Shown here in pieces: positions 6,016 through 12,354 of a stretch of 32,000 bases of DNA (its first letter is position 1; every line of letters starts with the position of its first letter). The stretch comes from Candidatus Jordarchaeales archaeon (GTDB lineage Archaea; Asgardarchaeota; Jordiarchaeia; Jordiarchaeales; Freyrarchaeaceae). The notes beneath the pieces are model-generated. The model saw only the letters and a program-made list of their open reading frames with translations, did not search any database and was not told where the DNA came from. The translations under genes were made by a program, and so were the position numbers. The DNA lies in NCBI GenBank assembly GCA_038858525.1, contig JAWCFL010000004.1, forward strand, positions 30,001-62,000, written 5' to 3'.

Positions 6016-6143
6016 GGGTCTGTGGCCTAGCCAGGATATGCTATAAACGCCTAAAGGCGCCGGCCTCCGGAGGGGTGTCTCGAGGAAAGCCGGAAAGCGA
6101 GGGTTCAAATCCTAAAATGGTGAAACTCCCTCCAGACCCGCCA
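6016..6143 (+). tRNA. tRNA-Arg(CCG) with three introns (21/22: 6039-6054; 37/38: 6071-6087; 59/60: 6110-6126); CCA encoded
   Basis: Spliced 78-nt sequence: GGGTCTG TG GCCT AGCCAGGATA AGGC G CCGGC CT CCG GA GCCGG AAAGC GAGGG TTCAAAT CCCTC CAGACCC G CCA. All four stems pair. Each intron has a BHB or relaxed BHB; 59/60 is perfect (TTCA/TGAA). Confidence 0.93.
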
Positions 6144-6197
6144 ATTAATCCAAACTTTTAAGCTACGCTACGTTAACCTTCATGAGGTAATGTTTTA

Positions 6198-8090
6198 GTG
6201 GTGACAATAATGATCCTAACAGTTAAAGCGAAAATTGCAGATGCACTTTGGCATACGCTGAAAAAACTGGGCTTCTCAGTTTCGAGGGATGACGTATCGG
6301 AGCTACCTGAGCCCCCTGACCCTAGGCTAGGCGACATCTCCTCAGCTATTCCTCTTAAGCTTGCCCGCTCTCTGAAGCGTAAGCCGCTCGAAATAGCTCA
6401 GTCTATCGCTTTGAACTTTGAAAAGCCGGAGTTTGTTGAACGCGTCGAGGCCGCAGAGCCAGGATACGTAAATTTTTTCCTCGATAAGGTGAAGCTTGCA
6501 GGCGATGTTATAAGGACTGTTATGGAGGAAGGTGACCGGTACGGTTTCAGTAACGTAGGGGGAAAAAGAAAAGTTATTGTTGAGCATACCGCTGTCAATC
6601 CTACTAAACCATTACATATAGGTCATTTGAGGAATGCCGTCTTGGGTGACGTTGTCGCGAACCTATTAAGAGCTTGCGGCTGGAGGGTTGAAGTTCAGAA
6701 CTACATTGACGATCTGGGTCGCCAGATGGGTGTTTTAGTATGGGCTTTCCTAAACAACCTGCACCTAGAAGTTCCAAGAGAAAGAGACATGAAACTTGAC
6801 TTCTGGTATGGATTAGTATACGCCAAGGCTGCTCAGAAGCTTAAGGAGAACCCTGAACTGGAAGCTGAAGTGGATGAAGTTATGAAGCGAATGCTTAATG
6901 AAGATGAAGTGGCGCTCTTCAGCAGGAAACTCGCCGAGATGTGCGTAGAGTCAAACCTTGAAACCGCCGCTAGGGCAGGAATAACGTATGACCTGTTAGT
7001 TTGGGAGAGCGACATTTCAAAAGCCCACCTTTGGGAGCACGCCATGAATCTTCTCGAAAAATCAGAGCATTTCGTCTGGGAGACTGAAGGGGAATATAAA
7101 GGCTGCTTCGTTGCGAAGCTCAGTCACCTAGAAGAATTCAAGGACAAAAAGAACCCCGACAAGGTTCTCGTCAGATCCAATATGGTTCCAACATACGTGG
7201 CACACGACATAGCCTATCAGCTCTGGAAGTTCGGCATCCTTGAAACAGGCATGAAGTACCGCCCCTGGCATAGGCAGTTCAACGGGAAAGAACTCTGGAC
7301 AACTTCACCCATCCTCGCCACGCCCTCAAACAACTTCGCGAAAGCAGACGTCGTGATAAACGTCGTGGGGTATGAGCAAGAATACCTACAAAAAACGGTC
7401 AAAGTCTGCCTGAAGCTCCTAGGCCACTTGGAGCAAGCTGAAAACTCCATACATCTCTCATACAAACACGTTCAGCTCATGGGCGAAAAATTTTCTGGAA
7501 GAGAGGGAAACTGGGTGGGATACCACGCTGACGCCGTCATAAATCAGACCCTGCTGTGCGCATACGAGCAGGTAAGCAAAAACCTCCCTGAAGCATCAGA
7601 ACTCGAGAAGAGACAAATAGCGGAAATAGTGGCTGTGGGCGCTGTGAGATACTGGCTCACGAAGTTCAGCACAGAGCAAACAATAATATTCGACTATGGA
7701 AAAGTCACAAATTTCGACGGCGAAACCGGGCCGTACATACAATACGCGGCGGTGCGGGCGAAAAGCATACTTGAAAAAGCAGGAGAAACCCCCAGCCCGG
7801 AAATCAACCCAGAGAAACTCCTAGGTTCAAGAGAAATTGATCTCATTAAACACATAGCAAAGTTCCCTGAAGTGGTCCAAATATCAGCTAGGAACCTTAA
7901 ACCGAACATCCTAGCAGAATACACTTACCAGCTGGCAGTACGTTTCAACAAGTTCTACGAGGAATGCCCAGTTCTTACAGTCGACGATCCGGAGACCAGA
8001 AAAGCCCGCCTCGCCCTCGTACAGGCCGTTCTACAATCACTAAAGAACGCCATGAAAATACTCGGCATAGAAATACCGCCAAAAATGTAA
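6198..8090 (+). CDS. argS: Arginyl-tRNA synthetase
   Basis: NPTKPLHIGHLRNAVLGD (HIGH), GYVNF, NYIDDLGRQ, F.G.TGPYIQYA..RAKSIL and C-terminal DALR-type anticodon-binding domain. Confidence 0.97.
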   Translation: MVTIMILTVKAKIADALWHTLKKLGFSVSRDDVSELPEPPDPRLGDISSAIPLKLARSLKRKPLEIAQSIALNFEKPEFVERVEAAEPGYVNFFLDKVKLAGDVIRTVMEEGDRYGFSNVGGKRKVIVEHTAVNPTKPLHIGHLRNAVLGDVVANLLRACGWRVEVQNYIDDLGRQMGVLVWAFLNNLHLEVPRERDMKLDFWYGLVYAKAAQKLKENPELEAEVDEVMKRMLNEDEVALFSRKLAEMCVESNLETAARAGITYDLLVWESDISKAHLWEHAMNLLEKSEHFVWETEGEYKGCFVAKLSHLEEFKDKKNPDKVLVRSNMVPTYVAHDIAYQLWKFGILETGMKYRPWHRQFNGKELWTTSPILATPSNNFAKADVVINVVGYEQEYLQKTVKVCLKLLGHLEQAENSIHLSYKHVQLMGEKFSGREGNWVGYHADAVINQTLLCAYEQVSKNLPEASELEKRQIAEIVAVGAVRYWLTKFSTEQTIIFDYGKVTNFDGETGPYIQYAAVRAKSILEKAGETPSPEINPEKLLGSREIDLIKHIAKFPEVVQISARNLKPNILAEYTYQLAVRFNKFYEECPVLTVDDPETRKARLALVQAVLQSLKNAMKILGIEIPPKM

Positions 8091-8130
8091 TGTAAAAAGG
8101 TAATCATCTAAGTTTGGTGGGCGTTGTCAA

Positions 8131-8144
8131 AGAAAAGTTTAATA
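8131..8144 (+). promoter_or_regulatory. BRE/TATA promoter of tRNA-Arg(GCG)
   Basis: AGAAAAG-TTTAATA; the TATA box at 8138-8144 is centred about 28 nt upstream of G1 (8169). Confidence 0.6.
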
Positions 8145-8168
8145 CACCTGCTTTCTGTTTCTAAAAAT

Positions 8169-8337
8169 GGGCCCCTCGCCCAGCTAGGATACTCAAAGCC
8201 TGACAGGGCGCCAACATTTAAGTGGCGCACGCCTGCGGTGGCTTCAGCGCAGAGAGCTGGTGGTCGCAGGGCGGAGGACTTCTCCTCCCGGCTAAGGGTT
8301 CAAATGGGGGTTCCCAGGGCAGATCCCGCGGGGCCCG
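8169..8337 (+). tRNA. tRNA-Arg(GCG) with five introns (20a/21: 8191-8204; 29/30: 8214-8230; 37/38: 8239-8254; 50/51: 8268-8295; 58/59: 8304-8322); CCA not encoded
   Basis: Spliced 75-nt sequence: GGGCCCC TC GCCC AGCTAGGATA GGGC G CCAGC CT GCG GA GCTGG TGGTC GCGGG TTCAAAT CCCGC GGGGCCC G. All stems are fully paired and each junction has a 4-bp BHB central helix. C9 is atypical. Confidence 0.9.
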
Positions 8338-8422
8338 TTAACTCTCTTATAAGCTCTTTTTGAGATTTACAGGAACTGAAAGCATTAGACATATATCTCA
8401 GAGCTCTGAGGAGGCGCTTTTC

Positions 8423-12216: not shown

Positions 12217-12354
12217 TGGTGGACCCCGCGGGATTTACTCAACCTTTTTTCTGGGTTTTTGAATTCGCGGCCCTCTTCAGGGCACCCGCGGCCTCCCGGG
12301 TGCGAACCGGGTGCTCATGGCGCCACAGGCTCTACCAGGCTGAGCTAGGGGCCC
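12217..12354 (-). tRNA. tRNA-Ala(CGC) with three introns (22/23: 12331-12316; 53/54: 12284-12264; 58/59: 12258-12235); CCA encoded
   Basis: Spliced 77-nt sequence: GGGCCCC TA GCTC AGCCTGGTA GAGC A CCCGG TT CGC AC CCGGG AGGCC GCGGG TTCAAAT CCCGC GGGGTCC A CCA. It has the G3:U70 Ala identity pair and A73, and a BHB central helix at each junction. Confidence 0.93.

Follow-up and report, generated by a model that had tools for sequence, protein, structure and literature searches.

A tRNA-Arg(GCG) gene with five introns in a Jordarchaeia archaeon, and the competition between its splicing motifs

Interdependent introns in tRNA genes were described in the Thermoproteales and Crenarchaeota, whose multi-intron pre-tRNAs contain nested bulge-helix-bulge (BHB) motifs (Sugahara 2007, RNA 13:671; Tocchini-Valentini 2009, PNAS 106:20246; as recounted in PMC3978253 and PMC3728597). 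In the red alga Cyanidioschyzon merolae, experiments showed that independent BHB introns are removed according to the free energies of their motifs, with the intron at position 37/38 removed last (Soma 2013; PMC3728597). Among the Asgard archaea, 92–95% of the tRNA genes in Atabeyarchaeia and Freyarchaeia contain introns (Valentin-Alvarado 2024; PMC11291895), and a preprint reports up to five intervening sequences within a single gene (Goswami 2026; doi 10.64898/2026.10.13.758758). In the preprint, introns are scored one at a time, only against a fully spliced background, and their order of removal does not come up. So the interdependence of tRNA introns, their ordered removal, and five-intron genes in Asgard archaea are already established.

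Here we examine a tRNA gene from a Candidatus Jordarchaeales archaeon (genome G000, assembly GCA_038858525.1). The window that we analyzed is a stretch of 32,000 nucleotides from contig JAWCFL010000004.1 (positions 30,001 to 62,000 of the forward strand). Neither ARAGORN nor Rfam, at gathering or at permissive thresholds, found a tRNA in the raw window, and the sole matches were spurious ones to lncRNAs. Excising five introns from the locus in Table 1 leaves a 75-nt product that ARAGORN identifies as tRNA-Arg(GCG), with a regular cloverleaf. From its sequence, we consider the locus to be functional, a tRNA-Arg(GCG) gene with five introns from an Asgard archaeon of the Jordarchaeia; the splicing of all five introns, and any order of their removal, are what we infer.

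Table 1. The tRNA-Arg(GCG) gene of genome G000, its exons, and its introns. Coordinates are those of the window; motif classes are for the unspliced precursor.
Feature	Coordinates	Strand	Length	Description
tRNA-Arg(GCG) gene	8169..8337	+	169 nt	six exons and five introns; CCA not encoded
Exon 1	8169..8190	+	22 nt	positions 1-20a: acceptor 5' strand, D-stem 5' strand, most of the D-loop
Intron I1	8191..8204	+	14 nt	20a/21, D-loop; class HBh'; central helix U17.G, A17a-U, G18-C, G19-C; exon-side helix 1 bp; intron-side helix 2 bp
Exon 2	8205..8213	+	9 nt	A21-A29
Intron I2	8214..8230	+	17 nt	29/30, anticodon stem; class hBHBh'; central helix G24-C27 with intron nt 12-15; outer helix G23-C31, G22-C32, A21-U33 (plus the last nt of I1, C, with G34); intron-side helix 3 bp
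Exon 3	8231..8238	+	8 nt	G30-G37, anticodon GCG; contested between the I2 and I3 motifs
Intron I3	8239..8254	+	16 nt	37/38, the canonical site; class hBH; central helix C32-C35 with intron nt 11-14; intron-side helix 1 bp
Exon 4	8255..8267	+	13 nt	A38-C50
Intron I4	8268..8295	+	28 nt	50/51, T-stem; class HBh'; central helix G45-C48 with intron nt 23-26; outer helix a single pair, U44.G52; intron-side helix at least 3 bp
Exon 5	8296..8303	+	8 nt	G51-A58
Intron I5	8304..8322	+	19 nt	58/59, T-loop; class hBHBh'; central helix G53-C56 with intron nt 14-17; outer helix G52.U60, G51-C61; intron-side helix 4 bp
Exon 6	8323..8337	+	15 nt	A59 to discriminator G73

The gene begins with GGGCCCC and ends with GGGGCCC-G. 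By eye, there is a TATA-like sequence, TTTAATA, about 28 nt upstream (8138–8144), and a run of T lies 3' of the gene. Around its 3' end, positions 8334–8342 read ...GGGGCCCG, and TTAAC follows. Both of the neighboring tRNA genes encode their 3' CCA (6137–6143 and 12217–12222). We searched the genome for a second full-length copy of the gene, using the precursor and the spliced sequence as queries, and found none.

The gene for arginyl-tRNA synthetase (ArgRS; 6198–8090, + strand) lies between two arginine tRNA genes in the region 6016–8337: tRNA-Arg(CCG) (6016–6143) is upstream of it and tRNA-Arg(GCG) is downstream. The arrangement of ArgRS followed by tRNA-Arg(GCG) is conserved in two other genomes, G003 and G004. 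We found no tRNA downstream of ArgRS in the Freyarchaeia-type genomes that we searched.

Orthologues of the gene are present in three other genomes. Those in G003 and G002, which belong to the same genus as G000, also have five introns, and the one in G004, from a sister genus, has four (I3 is missing). In all four genomes, ARAGORN identifies the spliced product as tRNA-Arg(GCG). The exons are nearly identical in sequence, and their lengths (22, 9, 8, 13, 8, and 15 nt) are conserved; the introns have diverged, with the BHB pairs retained. A search of the class with the spliced 75-nt sequence found other isoacceptors only and no further orthologue. One of the matches was a one-intron tRNA-Arg(UCG) from a second family. 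Another was a compact tRNA-Arg(CCG) without introns (L009:391-468, contig C6 of G002); the tRNA-Arg(CCG) of G000 is split by introns. A tRNA gene without introns is unusual in this lineage, and this one could belong to a mobile element or to a foreign contig in the G002 assembly.

To assign the motifs, we used the BHB definition of Marck and Grosjean (2003), as restated in the 2026 preprint: a central helix of 4 bp and two bulges of 3 nt. The central helix pairs exon nucleotides X-5 to X-2, upstream of the 5' bulge, with intron nucleotides n-5 to n-2, upstream of the 3' bulge. The permitted classes (hBHBh', hBH, and HBh') have all 4 central pairs, free bulges, and at least one flanking helix of at least 2 bp. 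All five introns have four central pairs out of four and two 3-nt bulges, and in G000 each of them falls into a permitted class before any splicing. The BHB rule holds for all of the introns in the four orthologues (19/19), as compared to 50/2850 (1.8%) if the boundaries are shifted by up to 6 nt, so the fit is far beyond chance. In G003 and G004, I1 has the four central pairs and no flank of 2 bp, which makes it a relaxed motif.

Two other arrangements were considered. A mirror-image BHB, in which the 5' end of the intron forms the central helix with the 3' exon, is ruled out by geometry, because both bulges must be 3' of their strand of the central helix. Exon-skipping hybrids, which would join the 5' site of one intron with the 3' site of another, never have all four central pairs.

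Differences between the orthologues that preserve pairing affect four central helices (those of I1, I2, I3, and I5) and, in I4, the intron-side helix. For instance, the first pair of the I1 central helix (17/i12) is U.G, U-A, C-G, and C-G across the four orthologues. In I4, both strands of the intron-side helix differ in G004 (GGG/CCC becomes AGA/UCU), and in I5, G002 and G004 have U-A in place of two U.G pairs. The I2 motif is found in all four orthologues, with its G24-C pair becoming G.U in three of them. The covariation evidence is thin because there are just four orthologues, all from one family. An unbiased consensus fold of the four recovered one BHB helix, which was the central helix of I1. 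In this fold (8178–8209), the I1 central helix is enclosed by a closed native D-stem, and instead of a simple bulge, a 3x3 internal loop that C13-G22 closes holds the 3' cut site of I1.

It's useful to consider how much room two neighboring motifs need. If two BHBs with outer helices of 2 bp are to stay apart, the exon between them must be at least 11 nt. In an exon of 8 nt between BHB introns, nucleotide 1 is in the upstream bulge and nucleotides 2 onward are in the upstream outer helix; nucleotides 3–6 are in the downstream central helix and nucleotides 7–8 are in the downstream bulge. Neighboring motifs in this gene overlap because three of the internal exons are only 9, 8, and 8 nt, so the overlap adds no signal of its own.

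One overlap involves I2 and I3. A preliminary description of this DNA had stated that the outer helix of the 29/30 motif uses C32 and U33, which the central helix of the 37/38 motif needs, and all of those pairs are present. G34 is also common to the two helices, and G30 has two roles, as a bulge nucleotide in the I2 motif and as the partner of C40 in the outer helix of I3. The statement that the outer helix of the 37/38 motif is complete only after I2 is removed also held up: the anticodon stem beside I3 has 2 bp if I2 is present and 7 contiguous bp after I2 is removed. Between I4 and I5, the sharing of G51 and G52 is real: G51 is a bulge nucleotide of I4 and pairs with C61 in the I5 motif, and G52 pairs with U44 in the I4 motif and with U60 in the I5 motif. 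It does not amount to a constraint, since I5 can use its 4-bp intron-side helix instead, and since the removal of I4 lowers the accessibility of I5. There is also a third overlap, which the preliminary description did not include: A21 and G22 are common to the I1 motif and to the outer helix of I2.

Whether these overlaps matter depends on how much of each motif must be formed. The five cores (the central helix and the bulges) share no nucleotides, and it is the outer helices that overlap. All five cores fit into one nested structure with five hairpins, which is about 21 kcal/mol above the ensemble and in which the exon-side helices are all lost. If full motifs are required, then at most three of the five can coexist, and the largest sets are {I1, I3, I4} and {I1, I3, I5}. 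Under the published classes, up to four of the five can coexist, and I2 and I3 are the only incompatible pair (in G000, G003, and G002). The clashes between I1 and I2 and between I4 and I5 disappear once one of the motifs takes its intron-side helix. Either way, the unspliced precursor cannot display all five motifs together, as had been proposed from the sequence.

The clash between I2 and I3 arises by different routes in different orthologues. In G000, the intron-side helix of I3 is just 1 bp, so I3 requires the pair G30-C40, and I2 requires G30 to be free. In G003 and G002, it is the intron-side helix of I2 that is 1 bp, so I2 requires C31/C32, which I3 uses. The exclusion is symmetric: if either one is removed, the other can still form its motif. 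Because of it, the motifs cannot all be presented at once, which implies that cutting, ligation, and refolding take place in two rounds or more. Each core is left whole by the other introns, so the term "nested", as used in the literature, does not apply here. Also, we found no BHB whose formation depends on the prior removal of a different intron; what I2 splits is the outer helix of I3.

We think that the following account is probably correct: removing the five introns would take more than one round of cutting, ligation, and refolding, with I2 and I3 as the only hard clash, and the order would be a preference instead of an obligatory cascade. A two-subunit EndA would cut each intron at its BHB, and RtcB would join the exons. 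With three internal exons of 8–9 nt, the footprints of neighboring motifs would necessarily share nucleotides. The 29/30 and 37/38 motifs would compete for the 8-nt anticodon exon (G30-G37) and would never both be in a cleavable class. The other three introns could be presented beside either I2 or I3, as hairpins of the HBh' type. The order would then reflect the relative stability of the motifs and the competing native helices. The likely preferences are that 29/30 is removed before 37/38 and that 58/59 is removed before 50/51. In principle, either I2 or I3 may go first, with I2 first being more likely. Under the class rules, the overlap between I4 and I5 should not be a constraint; if it has any effect, I5 would best be removed while I4 is present.

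The genome encodes enzymes of the kinds that this account calls for. There are two paralogues of EndA. The first (L007:1474-2049:-) resembles the catalytic alpha subunit of EndA from Aeropyrum pernix (E = 1.6e-48); it retains the Tyr/His/Lys residues, and its loop insert aligns through the loop region of the A. pernix protein. In the second, the catalytic His is replaced. The presumed structural subunit (L008:1189-1785:+, contig C43 of G000) has a strongly acidic, Glu-rich N-terminal extension of about 28 residues, which lies outside every alignment to the solved EndA chains. The pair fits an (alpha-beta)2 architecture, resembling the broad-specificity crenarchaeal type. EndA of the (alpha-beta)2 type cuts non-canonical, relaxed hBH and HBh' motifs (PMC4090602, PMC5829648). 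The RtcB ligase is encoded as well (E = 5e-181).

A broad-specificity EndA might instead cut each of the ten sites without regard to the others, recognizing bulge-helix-loop or HBh' hairpins, so that the overlaps are irrelevant and there is no order at all. The predicted (alpha-beta)2 type would suit this scenario, as would the fit of the five cores, as separate hairpins, into one structure; and because I1 and I4 lack an exon-side helix, the enzyme must accept relaxed motifs. However, the structure with all of the cores has the high energy given above, and I3 of G000, with its 1-bp intron-side helix, needs the G30-C40 pair that I2 needs to be open. Furthermore, an 8-nt exon that was cut on both sides at once would be held by just 2–3 bp. 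Even the independent motifs of C. merolae are removed in order (Soma 2013; PMC3728597). Cutting without any order therefore seems unlikely to us. The opposite departure from our account is also worth stating: if EndA needs both outer helices, then the clashes between I1 and I2 and between I4 and I5 would count too, and the order would be more constrained.

The preliminary description had gone further and proposed an obligatory order, or a programmed cascade of refolding and cutting, in which each removal exposes the next motif. Full motifs do clash in three neighboring pairs, the 7-bp outer helix of I3 is available only once I2 is gone, and ordered splicing has precedents in archaea and in the red alga (PMC3978253, PMC3728597). 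On the other hand, the central helix and bulges of each motif are neither split nor taken up by the core of a different one, and the exclusion between I2 and I3 runs both ways. The same gene would also be spliced in G004, where I3 is missing.

As had been suggested, we folded all 32 states of partial splicing, at 37 and 65 °C, and no stable order emerged. None of the 32 states has a BHB in its MFE structure, so the MFE structures cannot be used to read the pathway. Each motif costs 1–13 kcal/mol in the model, and given these costs and the absence of BHBs from the MFE structures, the nearest-neighbor model, which ignores binding by proteins, ranks the motifs unreliably. There is one consistent directional effect: at 37 °C, removing I2 improves I3 by 0.4–5.5 kcal/mol (core motif) or 1.1–7.1 kcal/mol (full motif), and the sign is the same at 65 °C. 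The loss of I3 has almost no effect on I2, so that I2 forms equally well with or without I3, which does not suit a cascade. Nor do I4 and I5, each of which is slightly less accessible once the other is removed. In each of the four orthologues, I5 becomes less accessible after the removal of I4; the T-stem, which is then free to form, is the probable competitor.

We also modelled the flux through the 32 states, which allows 120 orders of removal. This gave 2–25 effective orders, and the top order varied with the motif definition, the temperature, and the orthologue (15423, 25314, 14523, 53124, 51423, or 52341). The probability that I2 is removed before I3 ranged from 0.25 to 1.0, and I2 first was favored in 9 of the 12 modelled conditions, which suits a cascade; against it, the top order changes with each condition and orthologue. 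The local conformers that show I2 or I3 have similar energies: -6.5 versus -7.7 kcal/mol in G000, -5.4 versus -5.6 in G003, and -5.8 versus -4.7 in G002. Being about 1 kcal/mol apart, they would form a near-balanced switch in this model, and such nearly iso-energetic conformers also argue against a cascade. Overall, we consider an obligatory cascade to be quite improbable.

That the locus is a decaying pseudogene, or that some of the insertions are not introns, is very hard to believe: the raw sequence is not recognized by the tRNA finder or by Rfam, and its global fold is no more stable than those of shuffled sequences (z = -0.9), but the product is a perfect cloverleaf, the four genomes keep the exons and the BHB pairs while the introns diverge, and our searches by precursor and by spliced sequence turned up no other full-length copy in the genome.

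Returning to the preference-based account, it is tempting to ask if the clash between I2 and I3 is a selected interlock, which would ensure that the 8-nt anticodon exon is never freed on both sides before ligation. Similarly, I4 might keep the T-stem open for I5. The exclusion is found in three orthologues by different routes (I3 relies on G30-C40 in G000, and I2 relies on C31/C32 in G003 and G002). We regard selection for an interlock as doubtful and offer it as speculation.

Another tRNA gene in the window also has a very short exon. A three-intron tRNA-Ala(CGC) (12217–12354, - strand) has an exon of 5 nt, TTCAA. For the introns that flank it, either order of removal yields a central helix with four pairs out of four. 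The apparent nesting of these introns can be escaped at the level of the core because the last nucleotide of the upstream intron (A) can replace G53 in the downstream motif.

The tRNA-Arg(GCG) gene illustrates how tightly BHB introns can be crowded together before the motifs begin to collide. It would be a good substrate for studying how a broad-specificity EndA deals with competing motifs and whether micro-exons are guarded against loss.

In comparison to the systems described above, the gene is most like the nested pre-tRNAs of the Thermoproteales and Crenarchaeota: it has several BHB introns at non-canonical positions, it is accompanied by what looks like an (alpha-beta)2 endonuclease, and interfering motifs lead to successive rounds of cutting and ligation. 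In the crenarchaeal cases, as far as those accounts describe them, there are at most three introns and the BHB of the last intron forms only after the others are removed. In contrast, tRNA-Arg(GCG) has five introns, its cores are intact in the precursor, and what is contested is the outer helices and the bulge nucleotide G30. Our models suggest mutual exclusion without a fixed order, unlike the nested cases.

The similarity to C. merolae is that both have multiple ectopic BHB introns, and our core-motif model also has 37/38 removed last, in 5 of 6 conditions. On the other hand, the genes of C. merolae are eukaryotic and nuclear, their motifs do not overlap, and their splicing intermediates have been detected, whereas tRNA-Arg(GCG) is archaeal and has overlapping motifs.

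The closest relatives are the interrupted tRNA genes of Jordiarchaeia and Atabeyarchaeia, which also have many D-arm introns that annotators miss and two EndA paralogues (PMC11291895; doi 10.64898/2026.10.13.758758). Our organism is from the same lineage: its ArgRS is 89–92% identical to that of Ca. Jordarchaeum sp. Those studies did not address the interplay of introns or their order of removal, so the analysis of which motifs can coexist is an addition to them and not a new principle. What this gene contributes is a conserved and fully dissected case, from an Asgard archaeon, of a tRNA gene that is fragmented to an extreme degree and carries its anticodon on an exon of 8 nt.
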